From positions 60,001 through 92,000 of the forward strand of contig CAURWT010000003.1 in assembly GCA_963528875.1 (NCBI GenBank): DNA of 32,000 nucleotides, given 5' to 3'. Position 1 is the stretch's first letter. Every line of letters begins with the position of its first letter. A model generated the notes under the pieces. The model saw only the letters and a program-made list of their open reading frames with translations. It was not told the origin of the DNA and made no database searches. Below, piece by piece: positions 4,348-30,402 of this stretch. The translations under genes were made by a program, and so were the position numbers. Source of the DNA: an uncultured Candidatus Saccharimonas sp. (GTDB lineage: Bacteria > Patescibacteriota > Saccharimonadia > Saccharimonadales > Saccharimonadaceae).

Positions 4348-4539
4348 TTACTTATTTTTTTCTTCAAGTTTTATTATTTTATCTCTATTACTATGTACTT
4401 CAACCATTGTATTCCAATAATTTTCTTCAGAGCCTTTGTAGTGCCAAATAAATAATCCAGTTAATATAGTTAACCATATAAAAGCTAACATTATTAATGA
4501 AATAATTACAATATCTTTTTTACTTTGTGGCTTTTTCAT
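4348..4539 (-). CDS. Small membrane protein (63 aa), hypothetical
   Basis: AAAGGAG SD 7 nt upstream of the ATG. One clear TM helix (IVIISLIMLAFIWLTILTGLFIW). Bounded by the 4311-4332 terminator. Confidence 0.5.
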   Translation of the reverse strand: MKKPQSKKDIVIISLIMLAFIWLTILTGLFIWHYKGSEENYWNTMVEVHSNRDKIIKLEEKNK

Positions 4540-4717
4540 ATATTCTCCTTTATGTTAAAAATGAGTAATTTTAAGTCTTACTCAGGAATATCGTAGTTTC
4601 TAAAATAATTTTTTGATTTTCATTCGAAAATCCTTTTTGAAATTTACTATTTGTTAATCTCTATATTAACGCAACAATATTAGCATAAGCTTAATTGAAA
4701 GTCAACGATTTTAAATC

Positions 4718-5787
<1,070 letters not shown>

Positions 5788-15952: not shown

Positions 15953-16210
15953 ATGAGCTCGGCTGCAGAAATATTAGTTGTTTTTCTTTCTATAGCTCTT
16001 GCAGTTTTCATCACGCTTGGAATTGTTACTTTTATTCTAGTAATTCGTGTAACTCGCCAAATTGGTGATGTTGCAGAAAAAATGCAAAATATAACAGCAA
16101 GTATTGATGGAATCGCACAAAATGTCGCTCAGGTGACTTCACCGATAATCATCGGAAAAACAATTTTTGACATTTTTAATAAATTTAAAACTAAAAAGGA
16201 GAAAAAATAA
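15953..16210 (+). CDS. Small membrane protein, DUF948-like
   Basis: N-terminal TM helix, then a helical tail. It is paired with and overlaps (TAATG) a YtxH-like gene, as in the Firmicutes ytxG/ytxH arrangement. Confidence 0.5.
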   Translation: MSSAAEILVVFLSIALAVFITLGIVTFILVIRVTRQIGDVAEKMQNITASIDGIAQNVAQVTSPIIIGKTIFDIFNKFKTKKEKK

Positions 16211-16548
16211 TGAGTAAAAAATTTGGATTAGGATTAGCTGTTGGTGCTTTAGTTGGTGCAGTTGCTGGAATTTTAACCGCTCCTAAAAGTGGCGAAGAAA
16301 CTCGAAAAGATTTAAAATTAAAAGCTAAAAAAGTTGCTGATGTAGCTACTCAAAAAACCGGTGAAGTTGCTGAAAACGCAGGAGAATTTGTTGAAGAAAC
16401 TAAAGAAAAAGTTACTGAATTTGCCGAAGGTGCTAAAAATAAAACTGGTGAAGTTGTAGAAAATGCAAAAAAAGAAGCTGGTAAAATTCAAAAACGTGCC
16501 CTAAATACTTTCGAAGGTGCTAAAAAAGGTTTTGAAAAGAAAGTTTAA
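16210..16548 (+). CDS. YtxH-domain protein (general-stress-like, Gly-zipper TM helix plus repetitive helical region)
   Basis: GLGLAVGALVGAVAGILTAPKSGEETRKDLK is the characteristic YtxH N-terminus. The rest consists of K/E-rich helical repeats. Confidence 0.7.
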   Translation: MSKKFGLGLAVGALVGAVAGILTAPKSGEETRKDLKLKAKKVADVATQKTGEVAENAGEFVEETKEKVTEFAEGAKNKTGEVVENAKKEAGKIQKRALNTFEGAKKGFEKKV

Positions 16549-17923: not shown

Positions 17924-20674
17924 ATGGATAGAAGAAGAATGCTCAATAAAGATGGGAAATCTGTTGAAAAACGAACTGCTTCAAAAAAAGCGAGTTCACT
18001 AAAAAAACAGAATAACCTAAGTTTATATACAAATTTGGCTCATCGAAGGAAAGAAAAGAAAGATTCAAAAGCTCGTGAGCGAGCAGAGTATCTTGCAAGT
18101 CTACCAAAAGACCCAGTGAAGAGATTTTTTTATCGTCTTCATCCAAAACGAGTTTTAAAGTATTGGTTTAGTAAGCGCGGTTTATTTATGGCTTTAAAAA
18201 TTTCCGCAGTACTTATTGTTGTTACTGTGGTTGGAATCGCAGCAGCTTTTGCCTACGTTTCGAAAGATTTAAATCAAATCAAACCAGAAGAATTAGCTAA
18301 GAGAGTTCAGACTACAGTTTCGAAATACTATGATAGAAATGGCGAGCTTTTGTGGGAGGATAAGGGTTCTGGTGACTATAAGTTAGTTGTTGATAATTCT
18401 GAGATTTCAGACTATGTTAAAAAGGCAACCGTTGCTATTGAAGATCGAGATTTTTACAAGCATAAGGGTGTCGATTTAACTGCGATTATTCGTGCTTTTG
18501 TAAATAATTTTAGAGGTGGAGCAACTCAGGGTGGTTCAACCTTGACGCAACAGCTTATTAAACAGGTTTATTTCTCTAACGAATCTAGCGATCGTGGACT
18601 TAGCGGAATTCCACGAAAAATTAAAGAGATGATTCTTGCGGTTCAAGTTGAACAAATGTATAATAAAGACCAAATTCTTTCATTATATTTGAATGAATCT
18701 CCATATGGTGGCCGTCGAAACGGAGTTGAATCTGGTGCACGAACTTATTTTGGCAAAAGTTCGAAAGATTTAACTTTGGCTGAGGCCGCATTATTAGCTT
18801 CTATCCCTAATAATCCAGCAGTTTATAATCCATATAATATAAGTTATAATAAGAGCTTGATTGAGCGTCAGCATAAAGTTTTGAATGATATGGTTTCTTG
18901 TGGATTTATTACTGAAAAAGAGGCTAAAGAAGCTAAAGAATTCGATATTCTTGCAACAATTAAGCCAGAAAAAGATCAGTATACAAACATTAAGGCACCA
19001 CATTTTGTTCAAGAGGTTAAAAAGAGACTTGAAGAAAAACTTGGTGTTAAGGTTGTTGGTGCTGGTGGCCTAACTGTTAAGACTACGGTTGATTTAAAGG
19101 CTCAATCTATTGCTGAAAATGCCGTTAATGCTGGTGCTAAAACTTTGTATGTTAGTGGCGCTGATAATATTGCTATGACATCTGTTGATGTTGCAACTGG
19201 GCAAGTTATCGCTCAAGTTGGATCGGTTGATTATAATAAAGCTGGCTATGGTCAAACCAATGCTTCAACTTCATCTCTTGACCCGGGCTCAAGTATTAAG
19301 CCTATTGTTGATTATGCAGCTTTGTTTAATAAGAAGGATACCGTTTATACGCCAGGGACAATTTTGAAGGACGAAAATATCGATTCGCAATATTGTAATG
19401 GAACATATGGGGCTTGTCAGCTAAGAAATGCTTCGAAACAATTTTACGGTAGTGTACCAATTAGATTCAGCCTTGGAAACTCTTTAAATATTGCAGCAGT
19501 TAAATCGTTGAGTATTGTTGGTGTTGATGAAGGTTTGAGTGTTGCGCAACAGCTTGGCGATAAATCTTATTGTAAAAATAGTAATGCTGGTCTTTCTGCC
19601 GCAATTGGCGGTGGATGTTCGGTTCATCAGGATGAGCACACAAATGCTTTTGCATCTATTGCACGAGGCGGTGTTTATAAAGAATTAACATATTTTACTG
19701 AAGTTAAAAATTCATCAAATCAAAAGATTTTTGAGTGGAAAGATGAATCAAAACATGTGATTGATTCGCAGGCCGCATATGAATTGACCGATATTCTTGC
19801 TGATCCAAGTGCTCGAACAACTACGTTTGGTGGTCAAAGTCGAAGTTATGGATTTACGGTTCCTGGGGTTTGGACAGCTTCGAAAACCGGAACAACAGAT
19901 AACGGAAAAGGTGCTGCCAAGGACTCTTGGATGATGAGCTATTCTCCTGTGGTTGCAACAGGTGTTTGGAGCGGAAATCATGACGGTCGAGCTTTACGCT
20001 CTCCTGACAACAGCCCTGTGCGTAGAGTGATTAATGAATATATGCGTGATGTTCACCATCAAGTTTATGCTTCTAATGGTAAATGGAAATCTGGTGATAA
20101 AATTGAAAGACCATCTGGAATTCGAAATTGTACAATAAATGGTAAGAATGATATTTGTCCATCTTGGTGGGATAAAAATAAAACCGGTTCAGTATCAAGA
20201 GAAATTGAGTTCGATAGTATTTCGAAGAGGAAAGCAACTAAATGTACACCAGAATCTACTCGAGTTAAACTAACTGTTTTCGAAACAACCGATCCAGTCT
20301 CTAAAAAGAAAACAATAACGGCACCAGAAGGTTATAATGTAAATGAAGAAGACAATATCCATAACTGTTCAGATTCACAACCATCCATCTCGAGTGTTTC
20401 ATACTCAAGGCATGCAAATTCAAATACTTACCGAATAAATATAAATATTGCAAAGGGGAATTTCGATATAACTTCGGTCGTGGTTAAGGTTGATAGTGCA
20501 ACAATTAGTACTGCTCTCCCAACTGGAAACACACTCTCAACAGATTATACGTTTAATAAAGCTGGTCAAAATATTACAGTTGAAGTTACTGACTCTGGTG
20601 GGTATAAAATTTCCAAAAGTTATACAGGGCCTTCCTCGATAAGTACGGAAAATACAACGGGTTCTTCAAGCTAA
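17924..20674 (+). CDS. Class A penicillin-binding protein (GT51 transglycosylase plus transpeptidase) with basic N-tail and ~200-aa C-terminal extension
   Basis: GT51 motifs EDRDFYKHKGVD and GGSTLTQQL. Transpeptidase motifs SSIKP (SxxK), SLN and KTGT. One TM helix (ISAVLIVVTVVGIAAAFAYV). ATG 17924 is preferred over the annotated upstream non-ATG start. Confidence 0.9.
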   Translation: MDRRRMLNKDGKSVEKRTASKKASSLKKQNNLSLYTNLAHRRKEKKDSKARERAEYLASLPKDPVKRFFYRLHPKRVLKYWFSKRGLFMALKISAVLIVVTVVGIAAAFAYVSKDLNQIKPEELAKRVQTTVSKYYDRNGELLWEDKGSGDYKLVVDNSEISDYVKKATVAIEDRDFYKHKGVDLTAIIRAFVNNFRGGATQGGSTLTQQLIKQVYFSNESSDRGLSGIPRKIKEMILAVQVEQMYNKDQILSLYLNESPYGGRRNGVESGARTYFGKSSKDLTLAEAALLASIPNNPAVYNPYNISYNKSLIERQHKVLNDMVSCGFITEKEAKEAKEFDILATIKPEKDQYTNIKAPHFVQEVKKRLEEKLGVKVVGAGGLTVKTTVDLKAQSIAENAVNAGAKTLYVSGADNIAMTSVDVATGQVIAQVGSVDYNKAGYGQTNASTSSLDPGSSIKPIVDYAALFNKKDTVYTPGTILKDENIDSQYCNGTYGACQLRNASKQFYGSVPIRFSLGNSLNIAAVKSLSIVGVDEGLSVAQQLGDKSYCKNSNAGLSAAIGGGCSVHQDEHTNAFASIARGGVYKELTYFTEVKNSSNQKIFEWKDESKHVIDSQAAYELTDILADPSARTTTFGGQSRSYGFTVPGVWTASKTGTTDNGKGAAKDSWMMSYSPVVATGVWSGNHDGRALRSPDNSPVRRVINEYMRDVHHQVYASNGKWKSGDKIERPSGIRNCTINGKNDICPSWWDKNKTGSVSREIEFDSISKRKATKCTPESTRVKLTVFETTDPVSKKKTITAPEGYNVNEEDNIHNCSDSQPSISSVSYSRHANSNTYRININIAKGNFDITSVVVKVDSATISTALPTGNTLSTDYTFNKAGQNITVEVTDSGGYKISKSYTGPSSISTENTTGSSS

Positions 20675-22845: not shown

Positions 22846-25366
22846 TCGATTAGCGGAAAAATTTAAGCCCGAACATTATGAATTAAAGCTTGATTTAATG
22901 CAAGCAAAAAATCGTGAATTTAATGGAATCGTTGATATTTTTGGTGAGATTAATGATGAAAAAGAAATTTCGCTTCATTCGAAAGATTTAGAGATCAAAA
23001 ATATTACTTCTGTTAACGATATAAAATTGAACTTTTCGAAAGCTGAAAATGATGAAATTTTAGTGAATATTGAAAAACTTAACTTTAAAAAAGGTGATAA
23101 AATCCAACTTAAAATTGAGTTTTCTGGTAAAATAACAGATGCAATGCATGGATTATATCCTTGCTACTATAAAGAAAATGGTGAGAAAAAAGAGCTTTTT
23201 GCAACTCAATTTGAAAGTCATCATGCTCGTGAGGTTTTTCCGTGCATTGATGAGCCTGAAGCGAAGGCAACTTTTTCGTTAGAGATTAAAGCTTTGAGTG
23301 ATCTTGAAGTTTTGTCGAATACTGAAATTATTGAAAAAAATGTAAATAGTAATATTCAACAGGTTAGATTTGCTAAAACGCCAAAAATGTCAACATATTT
23401 ATTAGCCTTTGTATTGGGTGATTTTCAACGAGTTTCGAAAAAGACTAAAAGTGGTGTGGAAGTTTCGGTTTTGGCAACAAAAGCTCAAAAGTCTGAATTA
23501 ATGGAATTTCCACTTAGTTTTGCAGTGCGGGTTTTAGAATTTTATGAAGATTTTTTTGGTCAAAAGTTCCCGCTTTCAAAGTGCGACCATATTGCTTTGC
23601 CAGATTTTTCTAGTGGCGCAATGGAAAATTGGGGCTTAATTACTTATCGTGAAACTGCATTGCTCGCTGGTAAAAATTCCTCAATATCTTCAAAAAAATA
23701 TGTTGCGTTAGTGATTGCGCACGAAACTTCACACCAATGGTTTGGAAATCTTGTAACAATGAAATGGTGGGATGAGCTTTGGCTAAATGAATCTTTCGCA
23801 ACGATGATGGAATATTTAGCAACTGACGCTTTAGAGCCGAAATGGAGAATTTGGGAAGAATTTGCAGTTAACGAAGCGGTTTTAAGTTTGCGCCGTGATG
23901 CAATTGATGGTGTTCAGGCGGTTCATGTTCCAGTTCATCATCCAGATGAAATTAGTACTATTTTTGATGGTGCAATTGTTTATGCAAAGGGTGCTCGCTT
24001 AATGAATATGCTTCGAAAATATGTTGGGAACGATGCATTTCGAAAAGGTTTACAATTATATTTTGATAAGTTTAAATATCAAAATACAATTGGCGATAAT
24101 TTATGGGATTGTTTGAGCGAAGCTTCTGGCAAAAATGTCGCAGATTTTATGAATCCTTGGCTTTTTAAAAGTGGCTATCCGAGTGTTTTGGCTGAAGAAG
24201 ATGGTGAAGAATTAAAATTATCGCAAAAGCAATTTTTTATTGGTGAAGGTAAAGATAGTGGGCGAATTTGGCCAATTCTACTTGGCTCAAATCAAAATAA
24301 TTTGCCTGAGATTATGGATTCGAAAGATTTAACTTGCAAGAAAAGTCCAGATTTTGTTCAGCTGAATCGAGGGAATGTTGCTCATTTTATTACAAATTAT
24401 AGCCAAAATCTTTTCGAAAATTTGCTCGAAAAGGTTAGAAATGGTGATTTAGACACAATTTCCCGCCTTCAAATTCTTCAGGAACGTTCTTTGCTTTCAC
24501 GCGGTGGTGAAATTCCAAGTGTTGAGCTGCTGCGAACTTTACAGAGTTATGATAAAGAAACTTCTTTAACGGTTTGGGATATGATTAGTCTTTTAATTGG
24601 CGAATTGAAAATTTTTATTAATGAAGATTCTGAAAGTTCGAAAAAAATGAAAAAATTTGTTGGCAATTTAGCTCAAAATGAATTTGAAAAACTTGGATTC
24701 GTTAAAAAAACTGGCGAAGACGAAGAAGACACGCAAAAACGTAGCTCAATTTTAGCGCACATGATTTATGCTGAAAATAAAAAAGCTATCTCAGACGCTT
24801 TAGATATTTTCGAAAATTCGCAGAATATGGAAGATATTGATTCGGAAATTCGAAGTTTAATTTTAACTGCAAAGATTCGCTTTGAAGAATCTCCAGAATT
24901 AGTGCAAAAAATGCTCGAAAGTTATAAGAACACTTCAAATGTTGATTATCGAGATGATATTATGGTGGCTTTAACTTCAACTAAAAATATTCAAACTGGT
25001 GAAATGCTTCTTGAAAAAATGCTTGAAAATGACATAATTAGAACGCAGGATATTTTAAGCTGGTATGTTCATTTACTTCGAAATTTGAAAACTCGAGAGC
25101 TAGCATGGAAGTGGCTACGTGAAAATTGGAAATTAATTGAGGAAAAATTTGATGGCGATAAAAGTTATAATGACTTTCCGCGATATTCAGGCGCGATCTT
25201 GCGAACCGAGAAACAGCTCCAAGAATTTAAAGAGTTTTTTGATCCTCTAAAAAGCGACCCAAGCTTAACTAGAGCGATCGAGATGGGTGAGAGAGAAATC
25301 GCCGGGCGAGTTGATTTGATTAAGAGAGACAAAGCAGCTATTGATAAATTTTTACAAAATCTTTAA
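22835..25366 (+). CDS. pepN: Aminopeptidase N, M1 zinc metallopeptidase family
   Basis: GAMEN exopeptidase motif and the HETSHQWFGNLVTMKWWDELWLNESFA zinc site (HExxH-x18-E). C-terminal ERAP1-like helical domain. Overlaps the mutase gene by 11 nt. Confidence 0.92.
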   Translation: MSVNRLAEKFKPEHYELKLDLMQAKNREFNGIVDIFGEINDEKEISLHSKDLEIKNITSVNDIKLNFSKAENDEILVNIEKLNFKKGDKIQLKIEFSGKITDAMHGLYPCYYKENGEKKELFATQFESHHAREVFPCIDEPEAKATFSLEIKALSDLEVLSNTEIIEKNVNSNIQQVRFAKTPKMSTYLLAFVLGDFQRVSKKTKSGVEVSVLATKAQKSELMEFPLSFAVRVLEFYEDFFGQKFPLSKCDHIALPDFSSGAMENWGLITYRETALLAGKNSSISSKKYVALVIAHETSHQWFGNLVTMKWWDELWLNESFATMMEYLATDALEPKWRIWEEFAVNEAVLSLRRDAIDGVQAVHVPVHHPDEISTIFDGAIVYAKGARLMNMLRKYVGNDAFRKGLQLYFDKFKYQNTIGDNLWDCLSEASGKNVADFMNPWLFKSGYPSVLAEEDGEELKLSQKQFFIGEGKDSGRIWPILLGSNQNNLPEIMDSKDLTCKKSPDFVQLNRGNVAHFITNYSQNLFENLLEKVRNGDLDTISRLQILQERSLLSRGGEIPSVELLRTLQSYDKETSLTVWDMISLLIGELKIFINEDSESSKKMKKFVGNLAQNEFEKLGFVKKTGEDEEDTQKRSSILAHMIYAENKKAISDALDIFENSQNMEDIDSEIRSLILTAKIRFEESPELVQKMLESYKNTSNVDYRDDIMVALTSTKNIQTGEMLLEKMLENDIIRTQDILSWYVHLLRNLKTRELAWKWLRENWKLIEEKFDGDKSYNDFPRYSGAILRTEKQLQEFKEFFDPLKSDPSLTRAIEMGEREIAGRVDLIKRDKAAIDKFLQNL

Positions 25367-25370
25367 ATTT

Positions 25371-25399
25371 AAAACCGACCATATTCAACGGTCGGTTTT
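25371..25399. terminator. Bidirectional terminator between pepN (+) and the COG0523 gene (-)
   Basis: Perfect 10-bp hairpin AAAACCGACC-9 nt-GGTCGGTTTT. Confidence 0.85.
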
Positions 25400-25402
25400 A
25401 CT

Positions 25403-26500
25403 TTATTTTGATAAAAAGAATCTTTCGAAATTTACCATATTTTGTGGTGTGATTTCATCTGGGTTTTTATCTTCTAGATCGCTTAACTTTGCAAGAATTT
25501 TAGCTTTATCAATTTTAGAGCCGATTAGAACGAGTTCAGTTTTTGGCGTTTCATCTTTCCAATCTTCGCTGTAAATATCAATAGTTTTGCCAACTAGCTG
25601 AACTATATATTTCTGCTCGTACCCTTTCATTCCAAAGTAGCAAATTCCTTTCATTCGAAAAAGATTTTTAGGTAAATTATCAAGAAAACTTAGGAATTTT
25701 TGAGGATTTAGTGGTTTTACCGTTTCGAAAGCCAAAGATTGAAATTGGTTGTGGATGTGGTCTTTGTGATCATGCTCGTGTTCTTCATTTTTCTCTTTAT
25801 TCTTTTGATCTGATTTTTGCCAAGAAAAAATTAAATCAGGATTAATTTTTGAGTTTTGACTTTCAATAATTGGTGAATTTGGGTTTAATTTTCTAATGAA
25901 TTCACGAATTTCTTGAATTTTATTTTTTGAAATTAAATCGGTTTTATTTAAAACAATAATGTCGCTCGCTTTGAGACATTTTTTAAAATGTGTTGGAAAA
26001 TCTTTCTTGGAATTTTCGAAATTTTGAGCGTCGATTAAATAAATATTTCCACCAAAATAAGAATATTGATTGCCAGAATATTGCAGAGTTTTAAGCAAAT
26101 CGTAAGGTTCAGCAATTCCACTGGCTTCAATTATGATTGCATCAAGCAGCGAATCTTTATTTGCTAATTTCGAAAGCGGTTCGCTCAATCCGTTATCGCC
26201 AATCATACAGCAAATACAGCCATTGCTAAGCTCAATTTTTTGCTCATTGATCCCATTAGAAATCAATTTACTATCGATATTTATTATGCCAAAATCATTC
26301 ACGATTGCGCCAATTTTTAGATTTGGGCTTGATTTTAAAATGTGGTTTAAAAGTGTGGTTTTGCCTGAGCCTAAAAAGCCAGAAATCATTATAACTGGAA
26401 TTTTTCGATTTTTTTGTTTTTTTGCTTTAATTTCTGTTTTTGAAAAATCATCAAAAATATCTTTCGAAAAGTTTGAAATGTCAAAATCTTCATTATTCAT
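25403..26500 (-). CDS. COG0523-family (CobW/ZigA/YeiR-like) G3E GTPase, putative metal chaperone
   Basis: P-loop GFLGSGKTT, the CxCC motif (NGCICCM), a His-rich stretch (EEHEHDHKDHIH) and the CobW C-terminal domain. Confidence 0.88.
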   Translation of the reverse strand: MNNEDFDISNFSKDIFDDFSKTEIKAKKQKNRKIPVIMISGFLGSGKTTLLNHILKSSPNLKIGAIVNDFGIINIDSKLISNGINEQKIELSNGCICCMIGDNGLSEPLSKLANKDSLLDAIIIEASGIAEPYDLLKTLQYSGNQYSYFGGNIYLIDAQNFENSKKDFPTHFKKCLKASDIIVLNKTDLISKNKIQEIREFIRKLNPNSPIIESQNSKINPDLIFSWQKSDQKNKEKNEEHEHDHKDHIHNQFQSLAFETVKPLNPQKFLSFLDNLPKNLFRMKGICYFGMKGYEQKYIVQLVGKTIDIYSEDWKDETPKTELVLIGSKIDKAKILAKLSDLEDKNPDEITPQNMVNFERFFLSK

Positions 26501-26530
26501 AAAACCAGTTTAACAGATTTTTAGAAAGCC

Positions 26531-26588
26531 TGCAAGATTTGCATTTTTAGAGAATATATGGTATAATTTGGAAGTTGCATTTTTGCAA
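26531..26588 (+). promoter_or_regulatory. Strong promoter (TTGCAT, 17 nt spacer, TGgTATAAT) bracketed by two TGCAA/TTGCA palindromes (candidate operators)
   Basis: TGCAA-gat-TTGCA at 26531-26543 overlaps the -35 (TTGCAT 26539-26544). TG at 26559-26560, TATAAT at 26562-26567. TTGCA-tttt-TGCAA at 26575-26588 lies at or just after the predicted +1. Confidence 0.55.
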
Positions 26589-26618
26589 AGAAATTTTAGA
26601 AAGATGAGGTGGAATCTT

Positions 26619-27377
26619 ATGAAGATTTCAAAAATTGTGATAATGAAAAACCTAAATAATGGTAAGAGCGAAGAAGTTAAGTTAGGCACGAAAGAAATTC
26701 GTGAATTTAACTTTCCAAAAAAAGCCTATATTATCAATAAGGTATTTATTGATAATATGTGGCTAAAAATTGCAGTTCTTGTGTGGTTTTTGGTCTTGAG
26801 CGCTTTATTGATAGTTGCAAAAATTAGTCAGAGTTATGGATTTTTATCAATATTAATATTGATAAGCTTAATAACCATAACGATTGTTGCTAATTTTCAA
26901 ATCGCTAGATTATACTTCTTCAGTGAGGAGGAAAATTGCAACATCGAGAAAAGGTTGTTAATCAGATGGGCGTGGGCTTCTACTGAAGGAATTGAATTGC
27001 CTGAGAACACGGAAGCAGAGGAGAGATGCTATGACTTTTTGAAGAAAGTTTTCGAAGAGATAAATAAATTCGCAATCAGATTTTATTTTTCTCATTTAGC
27101 TTTTGCTTTAACTTTATTGCTTATGGCAACAATGCTTTTAATAGCTGAAAGTCAGCCAGATGAAAGAGCGTCTATTTTTGTCGTAGTGGCATGGATTTTT
27201 ACGGAGTTTTACTTCTGGAAGATCCGTTGTTTAATCAGAGCAAAAGAGAAAATGCACTATAATGTTGCTACAAGAGTTAATGATGGTAATGGTAATACTT
27301 CTTTCTTCTTTTCACTAAATGGCAATTACGCCATTGAAGAAGAGATTAGCTTGATCTTCAAAGATTGCACTTTTTAG
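26619..27377 (+). CDS. Hypothetical integral membrane protein (252 aa, about 4 TM helices)
   Basis: GAGGTGG SD 5 nt upstream of ATG 26619. TM pairs at about residues 47-100 and 160-205, separated by a ~55-aa acidic soluble loop. No recognisable family. Low GC. Confidence 0.65.
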   Translation: MKISKIVIMKNLNNGKSEEVKLGTKEIREFNFPKKAYIINKVFIDNMWLKIAVLVWFLVLSALLIVAKISQSYGFLSILILISLITITIVANFQIARLYFFSEEENCNIEKRLLIRWAWASTEGIELPENTEAEERCYDFLKKVFEEINKFAIRFYFSHLAFALTLLLMATMLLIAESQPDERASIFVVVAWIFTEFYFWKIRCLIRAKEKMHYNVATRVNDGNGNTSFFFSLNGNYAIEEEISLIFKDCTF

Positions 27378-27391
27378 TTAATAAAAAACTT

Positions 27392-27425
27392 AGCCTTGCT
27401 AAATATGCAGGGTTTTCTTTTTTTT
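27392..27425 (+). terminator. Probable terminator between the two unknown genes
   Basis: Hairpin (AG)CCTTGC-taaatat-GCAGGG(TT) with G.U pairs, followed by a T-rich run TTTTCTTTTTTTT. Confidence 0.45.
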
Positions 27426-27433
27426 CGAAAATC

Positions 27434-27442
27434 TGGTATAAT
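27434..27442 (+). promoter_or_regulatory. Extended -10 promoter element TGgTATAAT for the second unknown gene
   Basis: TG at 27434-27435, TATAAT at 27437-27442. The -35 is weak. A GGAGG SD at 27463-27467 lies 8 nt before ATG 27476. Confidence 0.55.
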
Positions 27443-27475
27443 ATTTATATTCTACACATTTTGGAGGTAATAAAA

Positions 27476-28192
27476 ATGTTATATGAAGTTCTTTTTAAAG
27501 AGGAAAGCGAAGATTATTTGCGTCTCCGTCCATTAGTATCAGACACTCGGAGAGCGTTAAAAGCAATCAGTGATTGTGATATTGAAGAGTTACAGAATGT
27601 TTTATATATCGCAGAAAATTTTCATAGCAATAATAAGTATGATAAAGACTATGAAATTATGCGAGATAAGCTGCAGAGAATTTTGGATTTTATAAAAAAA
27701 TTTAATGAACACTTCAATAGAAGTGTTGATAAAAATTCTCTGAAGATTCTGGAATATAAAGAATCTGCCATTGTTGAAAATATCATCAGCTTAATCACGC
27801 AAGATGATCAGCTTGGATTTGAAGAGGCTGTGGTAATTCTCCAATCATTAAAGCCTATTGTTGATAGGCTAGTTATTAGAAGTGAAGAGCCAATGGCCAA
27901 TATTTATTCCACAGGATTGGATATCTGTGAAAGATATAATACCTATGGTATGAATTTTGCGATTATTATCAGTAGCAATTGCAAATGGTCTATCGAGTAT
28001 TTTATAAGAGGATGTAATCCTCGTCTTGACAACATAGTTAAAAATGGTATTTCTTCGATTTTACGTTCGAAGAAAGAAATAAAAAAACTCGATAATGGGT
28101 TAAAGAAAGATATAAAACTAGCCTATAAAGCTCTTGTTGAAAAAAAATATAGGTTTAGTCTAGTCGAGAGATACCGTGCTTTGTTTTTATAA
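27476..28192 (+). CDS. Hypothetical soluble protein (238 aa), predicted all-helical, no recognisable family
   Basis: Perfect GGAGG SD and its own promoter. The upstream part of the annotated ORF (27365-27475) spans the terminator and promoter, so ATG 27476 is preferred. Very low GC in places (about 20% in one 60-nt spot count). Confidence 0.65.
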   Translation: MLYEVLFKEESEDYLRLRPLVSDTRRALKAISDCDIEELQNVLYIAENFHSNNKYDKDYEIMRDKLQRILDFIKKFNEHFNRSVDKNSLKILEYKESAIVENIISLITQDDQLGFEEAVVILQSLKPIVDRLVIRSEEPMANIYSTGLDICERYNTYGMNFAIIISSNCKWSIEYFIRGCNPRLDNIVKNGISSILRSKKEIKKLDNGLKKDIKLAYKALVEKKYRFSLVERYRALFL

Positions 28193-28195
28193 TCT

Positions 28196-28219
28196 AGAGT
28201 CCCTTCGGGCTCTTTTTTA
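28196..28219 (+). terminator. Rho-independent terminator after the unknown two-gene cassette
   Basis: GC-rich hairpin GAG(T)CCC-ttcg-GGGCTC-like stem followed by TTTTTT. Confidence 0.65.
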
Positions 28220-28220
28220 T

Positions 28221-28249
28221 TTGACTTTAAACTTGAAATTTGATAAAAT
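28221..28249 (+). promoter_or_regulatory. Promoter for rnj: TTGACT, 17 nt spacer, TGaTAAAAT
   Basis: TTGACT at 28221-28226, TG at 28241-28242, TAAAAT at 28244-28249. A leader of about 70 nt follows. Confidence 0.65.
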
Positions 28250-28270
28250 AAGAATACTAAAATATTACTT

Positions 28271-28306
28271 GTTCGAAAAATCCGACCTAAAAATAACTTT
28301 TCGAAC
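28271..28306 (+). promoter_or_regulatory. 9-bp perfect inverted repeat (stem-loop) in the rnj 5' leader
   Basis: GTTCGAAAA (28271-28279), 18 nt, TTTTCGAAC (28298-28306). Each arm contains a TTCGAA hexamer. Confidence 0.5.
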
Positions 28307-28326
28307 GCTTTAATTTAAGGAGAAAA

Positions 28327-30402
28327 ATGACTGATAATTTTAATGAGAAGCAGGCTCGGAAGCGTGCTAACTTGCAGAAAAAAGCTCAAGATTTGCAAAA
28401 AAATCGAGATAAATATGTTGGGAATGCTAAAAAAGAAAGTAGCGAGAAGAACGCAAAAATCGCTCAAAAAGCTAAGAATATTTCAAAGCAAACTCGAGTT
28501 CAAAAATCTGACGCTAAAAAGGTGAATTTGCCAACAACAACGCGTCGTGGTGCGGTTGTGCGAGCTCAACGAATGATTTCGAATGATATCAATATGCGCG
28601 CAACTCAGCACATTGTTAATATTCCTGTTAATAAATCACTTTTTAACGGTTTTAATGGCGAACAGTTAACAGCTTCGAAATTGAAAAAACTTCGCCCAGA
28701 AAAGGATAGTGTGCGAGTAATTCCGCTCGGTGGCTTGGGTGAATTTGGAATTGGTAAAAATATGTTCGCAATTGAATATATGGATGAAATTTTAGTGATT
28801 GATATGGGCTCTATTTTTCCAAATGAAGACTATCCTGGTGTGAATTTCATGACACCAGATATCACTTATCTAAAAGATAATATGCATAAAGTTAAGGCTG
28901 TTGCATTTACACACGCTCACCTTGATCATATTGGTGCTGTCCGCCAGCTTTTACCTGAATTTGGAAATAATATTCCAATTTATGCAACCGATTTCACGAT
29001 TGGAATGATTAAACGCCAGATGGAAGAGGCGGTTGTTGAAGTTTCGCCAAATTATCAAATTGTTGATCCATTTAAGCATGAGCAAATTAGAATTTCGAAA
29101 TATATGACGCTTGAATTTGTGCATGTTTTGCACTCGATTCCTGGCTGTGTAGCAATGGTTATTCGTACACCAAATGGGAATATTGTTCATATGGGTGACT
29201 GGCGTTTCGAAAACGATCCTGTTGATACTCAATTCGATCTCCCACGACTTGCTGAAATTGCACAAACCGAAGGTGTTGATTTGTTGATGAATGAAAGTAC
29301 GAATATTGATACACCAGGAACGCACCCACACAGTGAATATTCAATTGGTGAAAGTGTTGGTGAAGTGATGACAGCGTATCCGCATGCACGATTGATTTTT
29401 TCTTGTTTTTCAAGCCAGATTTACCGCCTACAATTAATTTTAGATGAAGCAGTAAAACATGACCGTAAGGTTGCGTTTGCTGGATTCTCAATGATTAATG
29501 CGATTGAAATTGCGTTAAGATCGCGAAAAATTAAAGTTCCAAAAGATGTTATTGTAAAAATGGAAGATATCGTGAAGCTTGATGATTCGAAAGTCACAAT
29601 TGTCTGCACTGGCTCTCAGGGTGAATTAAACGCTGTTTTGAATCGAATGGCGACTGGCGCTCACCGATTTGTTAAAATTAAAGCAACAGATGTTGTGATA
29701 TTTTCTTCGAGTCCGATTCCGGGAAATGAGCCACGTGTGGCTTCGACTGTTGACGGGCTCTTGCGGGAAGGTGCTGGTGTAATTCAGCACGGTCGCGGTC
29801 ATTATCATGGCATTGGTCCACTCCATCTTTCAGGGCATGCTTACTACGATGACCACGTTCGATTGGTAGAAACTATTCGCCCAAGAAATTACCTCCCAGT
29901 TCATGGTGAATTTTACATGCTTCAACATAATGCTGAAATGGCGCAGAAAGTTCTTGGGTTAAAACGAGAAGAGATTCTTGTTGCTGACAGCGGTGATATC
30001 ATCGAGCTTACAAAAGAAAAGAAAATTAAAAAAGGTGGTCGTGTTCATGTTGGTTCAATTCTTTATGATAACACTGGAAATACGGTTCATGATGCTGTTG
30101 TGAAAGACCGCTTGCATATTTCAACTGAAGGTATTTTCATTATCGTGCTGACAATTAGCAAGAAAACTGGCCGACTTCTTAAAACGCCGGATGTAATTTC
30201 GCGTGGATTTGTCTATCTAAAAGATAGTGAAGAATTGATTGGTAAAATTCGTCATTATTTGCGAATTAAAATCGACCGCGAAGTTGAACGAAAAGTTGAA
30301 ATTGCTGACATGAAACAAGAAATCAAAGATGATATTTCTCACCTATTGTTTGATTCGACTGGTCATACGCCAATTGTTATTCCTGTTGTAAATAAAGTTT
30401 AA
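28327..30402 (+). CDS. rnj: Ribonuclease J (beta-CASP metallo-beta-lactamase RNase) with a ~125-aa lysine-rich N-terminal extension
   Basis: Canonical start-like VRVIPLGGLGEFGIGKNM at about residue 128, the HAHLDHIG motif, beta-CASP and C-terminal domains, and an AAGGAG SD. Confidence 0.92.
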   Translation: MTDNFNEKQARKRANLQKKAQDLQKNRDKYVGNAKKESSEKNAKIAQKAKNISKQTRVQKSDAKKVNLPTTTRRGAVVRAQRMISNDINMRATQHIVNIPVNKSLFNGFNGEQLTASKLKKLRPEKDSVRVIPLGGLGEFGIGKNMFAIEYMDEILVIDMGSIFPNEDYPGVNFMTPDITYLKDNMHKVKAVAFTHAHLDHIGAVRQLLPEFGNNIPIYATDFTIGMIKRQMEEAVVEVSPNYQIVDPFKHEQIRISKYMTLEFVHVLHSIPGCVAMVIRTPNGNIVHMGDWRFENDPVDTQFDLPRLAEIAQTEGVDLLMNESTNIDTPGTHPHSEYSIGESVGEVMTAYPHARLIFSCFSSQIYRLQLILDEAVKHDRKVAFAGFSMINAIEIALRSRKIKVPKDVIVKMEDIVKLDDSKVTIVCTGSQGELNAVLNRMATGAHRFVKIKATDVVIFSSSPIPGNEPRVASTVDGLLREGAGVIQHGRGHYHGIGPLHLSGHAYYDDHVRLVETIRPRNYLPVHGEFYMLQHNAEMAQKVLGLKREEILVADSGDIIELTKEKKIKKGGRVHVGSILYDNTGNTVHDAVVKDRLHISTEGIFIIVLTISKKTGRLLKTPDVISRGFVYLKDSEELIGKIRHYLRIKIDREVERKVEIADMKQEIKDDISHLLFDSTGHTPIVIPVVNKV

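Follow-up and report, generated by a model that had tools for sequence, protein, structure and literature searches.

Highly diverse specificity loci held in a conserved frame are known from the staphylococcal agr groups, the streptococcal comCD pherotypes and the pneumococcal blp bacteriocin/immunity loci. The immunity proteins against pore-forming colicins and the immunity arrays against membrane toxins of type VII secretion systems (T7SS) are small polytopic membrane proteins with both termini inside the cell (N-in/C-in). They have their specificity in the transmembrane (TM) helices, occur in tandem and vary between strains. In Kiwa, the 4-TM protein KwaA has short outside loops and a beta-barrel made up of its intracellular loop and C-terminus, and its soluble partner is KwaB (PMC11785009). 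RexB and gp31 of Sbash are also 4-TM proteins with a soluble partner, and the logic proposed for them is that a sensor activates a membrane effector (PMC6426596). Here we compare with these systems a two-gene cassette from an uncultured Candidatus Saccharimonas sp. (assembly GCA_963528875.1). It lies in a stretch of 32,000 nucleotides of contig CAURWT010000003.1 (positions 60,001 to 92,000, forward strand), which was analyzed as a whole and is called the window hereafter; positions refer to the window, unless preceded by the number of another locus (L001 and so on). Gene A encodes a predicted 4-TM membrane protein and gene B a predicted cytoplasmic, all-helical protein. The pair stands between the gene of a COG0523/CobW GTPase (cobW) and the gene of RNase J (rnj). 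Its coding sequences were highly diverse in a near-invariant frame, and on balance the cassette appears to be a membrane-anchored conflict or recognition module, vertically inherited, clade-specific and kept diverse by selection.

The locus scan, with one genome per species, gave 19 loci, and about 30 complete related Saccharibacteria loci were read for synteny. The order pgm-pepN-cobW(-)-A-B-rnj(-recG) was found in every complete relative locus, pepN being the M1 aminopeptidase gene beyond cobW. All copies examined were intact (20 of 20 for A, 18 of 18 for B). The flanking proteins were close to those of the window, with identities of 96–99.9% for RNase J, 91–98% for CobW and 89–97% for PepN, while A ranged from 57 to 90% and B from 53 to 96%. 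The identities of A and B were uncoupled across genomes: they reached 90% (A) and 62% (B) in L001, 66 and 96% in L013, and 58 and 87% in L012. At the nucleotide level, identity was 0.90–0.99 over 20.6–30.5 kb and went down to 0.66–0.83 only at ~26600–28100. Four contigs with an identical CobW protein carried other cassette alleles, with a nucleotide identity down to 0.58. Taking all these comparisons together, the cassette ranged from 0.58 to 0.85.

The borders of the variable region were sharp. Pairwise diversity among 12 genomes was ≤0.04 across the promoter of A (26380–26579), 0.2–0.48 from the 5' untranslated region of A through A, 0.05 at the terminator and promoter ahead of B (27420–27459), 0.13–0.29 through B, and ≤0.03 straight after the B terminator. 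Between clades whose A proteins were ~25% identical, the cobW-A intergenic region was 76% identical.

Divergence estimates by Nei-Gojobori, from nine genomes, gave a dN of 0.167 for A and 0.175 for B, which is 8–30 times that of the flanking genes (0.005–0.022). The dS was 0.43 for A and 0.68 for B, against 0.21–0.29 in the flanks, the synonymous divergence reaching up to four times the flanks. The dN/dS was 0.37 and 0.30, respectively, against 0.02–0.10. As a check independent of dN, we used four-fold sites, restricted to codons that agree in their first two bases. Their divergence was 0.227 in A and 0.286 in B (maximum 0.54), versus 0.154–0.186 in the flanks (maximum 0.28). The amino acid divergence of A and B is too large to have arisen in place during the time recorded by the flanks, even neutrally, pointing to alleles that are older than their carrier genomes or were imported from diverged relatives. 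In the sister clade there were two classes of A alleles, 42–43% identical and with a dS of ~1.0; the genomes of both classes had flanks with a dS of 0.14–0.28 and 97–100% protein identity.

In sliding windows, pN/pS peaked at 0.75–0.95 in residues 119–137 (cytoplasmic loop), 158–195 (TM3–TM4, 0.8–0.95) and 206–232 (C-tail) of A and 165–194 of B, and reached 1.02 at the C-terminus of the sister-clade A. The outside loops of A were comparatively conserved, and it was the TM helices and cytoplasmic segments that varied.

Recombination was detected in both genes. The pairwise homoplasy index (PHI) was significant for A, B and both joined (p = 0.001, which is the lowest value that 1000 permutations can give). 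By the four-gamete criterion, the lower bound (Rm) was at least 62 events for A and at least 64 for B in 12 genomes, counts that recurrent mutation may inflate. Correlations of segment-wise distances decayed with distance along the locus. By this measure A was a mosaic (N-terminus against TM1–2, r = 0.10), residues 61–238 of B formed one block (r = 0.84–0.90), and segments of A and B were correlated with r = 0.05–0.36. The Mantel r of 0.33 was partly driven by clonal pairs. The conserved A-B spacer is evidently a third recombination anchor. The weak coupling disfavors a cognate, co-evolving toxin-immunity pair, a layout to which the earlier note had likened the two genes. The marks expected of such pairs, and of polymorphic toxin pairs, were lacking: the alleles are reshuffled almost independently and no toxin or secretion domains were found.

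Strains with ~100% identical flanks carried identical A and B. Programmed hypervariation (diversity-generating retroelements, silent cassettes or phase-variable repeats) was rejected: a search confined to the 32-kb window found no template-like repeats or partial copies, clonal strains had identical alleles, and the (SE)n repeat unit of B, described below, keeps the reading frame. In strains otherwise ~100% identical to the window we observed patches of 93–98% identity at 4501–5100, 16201–16500, 19201–20400 and 28001–28500, one of which runs from the 3' end of B into the beginning of rnj. Short patches of this kind mark recent imports by homologous recombination within a near-clonal population. 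In 6 of the 19 loci (L003, L008, L009, L017, L018 and L019), the contig of the metagenome-assembled genome (MAG) ended inside A or B. Breaks at these places would be expected if co-existing alleles within one sample disrupt assembly.

At this locus we thus found a diversity well beyond that of the flanks, alleles of greater age than the flanks, and recombination, with a pN/pS that nowhere clearly exceeded 1. With agr, comCD and blp it shares the fixed position, the near-identical flanks, the deep alleles older than the genome, the mosaics and the polytopic membrane proteins. It differs from them in having no kinase, peptide precursor, protease or transporter, in having the variable parts of A in the cytoplasm or membrane and not outside, and in the lack of tight coupling between A and B alleles. 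Loci whose diversity is maintained within a conserved frame are well known elsewhere, but the components found here, and presumably the mechanism, are not.

From hydropathy and charge, A starts with a K/R-rich N-terminus of ~47 aa, followed by two hydrophobic hairpins with four predicted TM segments (~48–67, 75–95, 156–175 and 185–204). TM1–3 were strong on the Kyte-Doolittle scale and TM4 was weaker. The hairpins are separated by an acidic loop of ~60 aa (13 D/E versus 9 K/R), and positive charges cluster at the start of the C-tail of ~48 aa. The positive-inside rule predicts a cytoplasmic location for the N-terminus, the large loop and the C-terminus (N-in/C-in), and the predicted outside loops have only 7 and 9 aa. 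This agrees with the 4-TM architecture that the earlier note had drawn for gene A. The AlphaFold2 (AF2) model of A had low confidence (pLDDT 47) and was left out of the fold search; the beta-hairpins that it places at the cytoplasmic N- and C-termini are unreliable. For B, the AF2 model (pLDDT 87, pTM 0.84) had 15 helices and was all-alpha, in line with the earlier suggestion of a soluble, all-helical protein, and B is predicted to be cytoplasmic. Many B alleles carried an acidic (SE/SEI)n insert of variable length in the loop between helices 8 and 9, at about residue 135, which is absent from the window allele. The insert consists of a tandem 6-nt unit (TGAAAG-type), in frame (L038:3301-3380; alignment columns about 140–172). 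Its copy number varied: among genomes that hardly differed in their A allele, B was 245, 261 and 265 aa long. The alignments contained 48 invariant residues for A and 51 for B.

Neither product could be assigned to a family, as the earlier note had already stated. A and B had no family match in Pfam, NCBIfam, PADLOC and PHROGs, and their profiles found nothing among PDB sequences. Gene C, which is found between A and B in other clades (see below), and the distant relatives of A and B had no matches in Pfam, NCBIfam, PADLOC and PHROGs either, apart from scattered sub-threshold TM noise (e.g., S_4TM matching 1 of 26 members at E = 0.022). With the PADLOC-DB v2 models, A, B, C and the sister-clade relatives of A and B gave 0 families at E ≤ 1. 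Foldseek searches with the B model against PDB and BFVD gave a best E of 0.1 and a TM-score of ~0.3, for generic helical look-alikes such as 14-3-3. Thus, the checks by PADLOC, HMMER and Foldseek (B model) that the earlier note had proposed gave no defense model and no known family for A or B.

Searching 1.84 billion representative proteins exhaustively with an HMMER profile returned only 10 relatives of B, three of them full length. At 90% identity, A formed 75 clusters, all full length and 56–91% identical, and B formed about 107. The profile search with A added distant relatives of 263–293 aa with 22–32% identity, none with a Pfam domain. No relatives were found on IMG/VR viral contigs, GenBank phages (INPHARED) or PLSDB plasmids, and a phage or plasmid origin was rejected. 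In the literature we found no published description of the cassette locus; papers that pair "hypervariable" with Saccharibacteria deal with either 16S regions or host proteins. The A, B and C families are outside every library searched, and as components they are new. The predicted fold of B is modeled with confidence, yet unmatched in PDB and BFVD.

In its layout the cassette resembles Kiwa, having two genes for a small 4-TM protein and a soluble cytoplasmic partner. Like KwaA, A would have tiny outside loops (from hydropathy and charge) and possibly beta-hairpins in its cytoplasmic parts (from the model with pLDDT 47). However, A and B had no sequence match to the PADLOC models, and B is all-alpha without a Pfam hit, whereas KwaB has a Rossmann-like N-domain and a DUF4868. 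Furthermore, A and B are separately promoted with a terminator between them, and the cassette is universal, fixed and hypervariable instead of patchy. With RexAB (RexA/RexB of lambda, gp30/gp31 of Sbash) it shares a 4-TM protein and a cytoplasmic protein of ~250–280 aa. A RexA-type partner carries a DUF4747, whereas no Pfam hit was obtained for B. The cassette is not encoded by a prophage, having housekeeping surroundings and no phage relatives, and the gene order is reversed. The cassette departs from Kiwa and RexAB on every testable sequence or domain feature, and the likeness would be an analogy of layout only.

The slot between cobW and rnj was also occupied in deeper clades, with a third gene. 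In L017 and L016, whose CobW is 74% identical, gene C was located between A and B. Its product has 298 aa and contains two TM hairpins as well as stretches rich in beta structure (L017:772-1668; L016:3776-4672). In L021 and L042-L047, the slot contained A (270 aa), C1 (197 aa), C2 (185 aa) and B (177 aa), with one or two copies of C. The tandem C paralogs were 43% identical to each other. Across its range of 185–298 aa, gene C has a conserved N-terminal GRxLPVFEN motif, a TM hairpin, a likewise conserved IRAPK...WLIFP.D.YPAVAF stretch and a second hydrophobic region. The C2 proteins of the sister clade were 59–73% identical among the three genomes compared, with a dN/dS of 0.53–0.77. The A, B and C proteins of the deeper clades are true but distant homologs, with 24–30% identity. 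A and C as paralogs of each other were rejected (hhalign probability <1%). Gene C was absent from the clade of the window.

The same slot in the deeper clades indicates that the cassette is ancestral and vertically inherited. By this comparison the ancestral order is A-C-B, and C, a second two-hairpin membrane protein, has been lost from the clade of the window. A and B can likewise be regarded, from their synteny, as vertically inherited core genes that are confined to a small human-oral Saccharibacteria group with low GC and small genomes. The sample names of further contigs indicate human oral metagenomes, and the low GC fits the small, low-GC oral clades, a placement that we infer only. 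G6 is described as the clade with the lowest GC and the smallest genomes (PMC8386444).

Three further observations were made in these loci. In L021, the last 29 codons of the A-like gene were repeated just past C1 (L021:5091-5177, 86% identity), resembling a scar of the C1/C2 tandem duplication. In L016, which is from a single MAG, the cobW-A segment was inverted relative to C-B-rnj (L016:4766-7281), either a real rearrangement or a misassembly, and was followed by a fragment of a large serine recombinase, from its C-terminus (DUF4368, E 2e-21). The A-B spacer was ~270 bp longer in one allele family (L033:3795-4160, minus strand). Within it were a second, degenerate version of the TGgTATAA promoter and an ORF of 37 codons (MQKRDILLKPTFLGLGSHLTETRRTAFIICLSFFSFL), which has a hydrophobic tail and lacks a clear Shine-Dalgarno sequence.

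The gene layout given by the earlier note held throughout: both ORFs are real, each has its own TGgTATAAT extended -10 promoter and a strong Shine-Dalgarno sequence, a hairpin with a T-run is found between A and B and after B, and family matches confirmed the two flanking genes (Table 1). In the region 25300–28600 we counted 5 terminator-like sites, versus 1.5 ± 1.4 in shuffled sequences. The promoters of A and B are alike over 37 nt (76% identity, 26531–26567 versus 27406–27442), with TGGTATAAT at the end of each. The +1 of A is predicted a few nt past its -10 box.

Table 1 Features of the cassette locus (positions in the window, except for the C copies, which are given in L021).
Feature	Position	Strand	Evidence and remarks
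cobW, COG0523/CobW GTPase gene	25403–26500	-	Family match; upstream flank of gene A
cobW-A intergenic region with gene A promoter	26501–26618		Promoter scan; near-invariant among relatives
Gene A -35 box TTTGCA	26538–26543		Promoter scan
Gene A extended -10 box TGGTATAAT	26559–26567		Promoter scan; 10/12 matches with TG
Palindrome/hairpin TTGCA-N4-TGCAA	26575–26588	+	8 nt past the gene A -10 box
Gene A Shine-Dalgarno GAGGTGG	26606–26612	+	From sequence; 6 nt ahead of ATG
Gene A ORF, membrane protein of 252 aa	26619–27377	+	ORF, hydropathy, charge
Gene A terminator-like hairpin	27392–27414, T-run to 27424	+	Scan; kept among relatives
Gene B extended -10 box TGGTATAAT	27434–27442	+	Sequence; in conserved island between variable genes
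Gene B Shine-Dalgarno GGAGG	27463–27467	+	From sequence
Gene B ORF, predicted cytoplasmic all-alpha protein of 238 aa	27476–28192	+	ORF, AF2 model
Gene B terminator hairpin AGAGTCCC-TTCG-GGCTCT	28196–28213, T-run to 28223	+	Scan
rnj, RNase J gene	28327–30402		Family match; downstream flank of gene B
C copies of L021	4531–5124 and 5329–5886		

The hairpin behind the promoter of A has a counterpart in the sister clade, TTACTC-GAAA-GAGTAA at the same place. Two of five pairs were changed on both sides and still paired. Its stability was weak in the two independent lineages compared (-4.4 and -5.9 kcal/mol). The palindrome may be a 5'-terminal mRNA stem-loop, notable beside an RNase J gene, or an operator. 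Another palindrome upstream, TGCAAgatTTGCA (26531–26543), was dropped as an operator candidate, being not conserved in other clades and overlapping the -35 box.

Gene A and cobW share the conserved, divergent intergenic region of 118 bp. The adjacency is uninformative, because the whole pgm-recG block is syntenic. With respect to metal binding as a basis for a partnership with CobW, there were no conserved His/Cys clusters in the A or B alignments. CobW carries a His-rich stretch (EEHEHDHKDHIH).

The mechanism that we propose is as follows. The cassette is always present and intact, with invariant promoters, and its coding sequences are highly diverse. Homologous recombination, with the invariant flanks and the conserved A-B spacer as anchors, shuffles old allele lineages, so that A and B assort almost independently. 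Negative frequency-dependent or arms-race selection would keep the diversity. A (and C) would act as a sensor or effector with 4 TM segments, varying in the TM helices, the cytoplasmic loop and the tail, and B would be the cytoplasmic helical partner of A. A varies in its TM and cytoplasmic parts and has tiny, comparatively conserved outside loops, making a role as surface antigen unlikely; an intracellular or intramembrane antagonist would fit better.

Conflict with phages or toxins, or recognition, are the usual causes of such a diversity pattern, and the allelic diversity in a near-invariant frame is independent support for some role of this kind. The parts of the proposal differ in strength. 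That selection and not drift maintains the diversity of A and B is fairly probable. Whether the role is one of conflict or recognition we consider an even call. More tentative, and at present short of probable, is the full proposal that A-(C)-B is an unrecognized, Saccharibacteria-specific conflict/recognition system, with folds without known relatives and allele classes under negative frequency-dependent selection. That A and B act together as a sensor-effector pair against phage is quite doubtful.

Several points weigh against a conflict or recognition module. Positive selection is not demonstrated, since no sliding window of A or B had pN > pS. Rapid switching does not occur, given the identical alleles of clonal strains. 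The B of the sister clade was only mildly variable (89–99% identity), and the diversification of B is hence not general. No PADLOC model matched, and the cassette is universal and fixed beside housekeeping genes, while most defense systems are patchy and located in islands. The model of A is poor, its topology coming from hydropathy and charge alone. Finally, much of the pattern could be produced by relaxed constraint combined with an import of diverged alleles.

This last point leads to the main rival, in which A and B would be envelope or housekeeping proteins specific to this lineage and under weak constraint. They would tolerate many substitutions and owe their diversity to relaxed purifying selection and the occasional homologous import of diverged alleles, with no conflict involved. 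The mean dN/dS of 0.30–0.37, never above 1 in the sliding windows, the universal and single-copy presence at a fixed place among housekeeping genes, the constitutive-looking promoters, the identical alleles of clonal strains and the lack of defense or toxin domains in our searches are what such proteins would show. The amount and the borders of the diversity argue otherwise. Amino acid divergence reached 47% in B and 57–58% in the sister-clade A, which is above the neutral limit at the four-fold divergence of the flanks (0.05–0.19), and dS rose to the fourfold of the flanks. The edges of diversity matched the transcribed genes exactly in every comparison, and the intergenic DNA was far more conserved than the synonymous sites of the flanks. 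Moreover, A and B split into ~75 and ~107 clusters, respectively, at the 90% level, in a lineage in which all RNase J proteins are at least 96% identical. We consider this rival unlikely, though it has to be reckoned with.

In another reading, A (and C) would be membrane proteins of the immunity type that shield the epibiont from toxins aimed at the membrane, for instance bacteriocins of competitors or effectors that the host bacterium secretes. Their specificity would be intramembrane, and B would be an accessory cytoplasmic factor. A resembles the colicin and T7SS immunity proteins in being a small N-in/C-in polytopic membrane protein with TM variation, tandem copies (of C) and strain differences. 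The variation includes TM3–TM4 of A, and in the sister-clade A the TM segments varied and the cytoplasmic loop was conserved. The number of C copies changes, with one or two tandem paralogs, and immunity-gene arrays vary in copy number likewise. Actinobacterial hosts deploy Esx-secreted effectors against Saccharibacteria (PMC13622651). However, no toxin gene was found nearby or adjacent, no homology or similarity to known immunity families was detected, A has large cytoplasmic parts, and its outside loops are only 7–9 aa long. Immunity as the function is therefore improbable in our view.

The earlier note had read the low GC of the cassette as a sign of acquisition, setting it against 40–43% in the neighboring genes. 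These neighbor values did not hold up: pepN had a GC of 0.339, cobW of 0.302, below A (0.327) and B (0.314), and rnj of 0.386. The cassette region had 0.311 versus 0.357 for the window, whose other genes had a mean of 0.361 (sd 0.034). The GC at third codon positions (GC3) was 0.352 for A and 0.276 for B, versus a window mean of 0.256. With GC3 at or above the window mean, the small GC deficit is due to amino acid composition (low GC1) and not to foreign codon usage. The composition is thus ordinary, and the pair is kept lineage-wide at the cobW-rnj junction, single-copy and nowhere else. Strict conservation at this junction had been named beforehand as speaking against acquisition, and this is what we found. 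Neither an integrase nor flanking direct repeats were present at the locus, as had been noted before, and the 32-kb window contained no flanking repeats, second or partial copies, tRNA genes or Rfam families. A recently acquired, low-GC accessory cassette (a toxin/immunity, abortive infection or defense island) inserted between cobW and rnj, for which orphan proteins with own promoters and terminators and a GC slightly under the window mean would speak, is essentially excluded by a GC inside the gene-to-gene range, a GC3 that is not low, the same slot in all relatives and two deeper clades, the lack of relatives on phages, plasmids and viral contigs, and A and B alleles that are not coupled as cognate pairs.

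The surroundings of the cassette are housekeeping, at 1839–25366 as well as beyond 30402. The first of these regions encodes RelA/SpoT, GAPDH, RpiB, Rpe, a PfkB kinase, UvrB, GatCAB, TyrRS, a transglycosylase penicillin-binding protein, phosphoglucomutase and PepN; RecG follows after rnj. An ORF of 112 aa at 16210–16548 had no Pfam hit and a GC3 of 0.08, versus the window mean of 0.256.

Among the Saccharibacteria, ultra-small epibionts whose genomes comprise ~0.7 Mb, almost all genes that have been kept should be of importance. A cassette that is always kept, has invariant promoters and exists in dozens of deep, recombining alleles is a concrete candidate for strain-level specificity toward phages, toxins or hosts. 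The unmatched all-alpha fold predicted for B and the membrane protein families of A and C are new targets for structural and functional work. The invariant flanks make the locus addressable by PCR and permit typing of alleles by amplicons straight from saliva and plaque metagenomes, which would make frequency-dependent dynamics testable without cultivation. We thus regard the cassette as a sharply delimited, testable specificity candidate in uncultivated human oral epibionts, and not as an acquired defense island. If true, the A-(C)-B system would set which phages, toxins or bacterial hosts an epibiont strain withstands or exploits.

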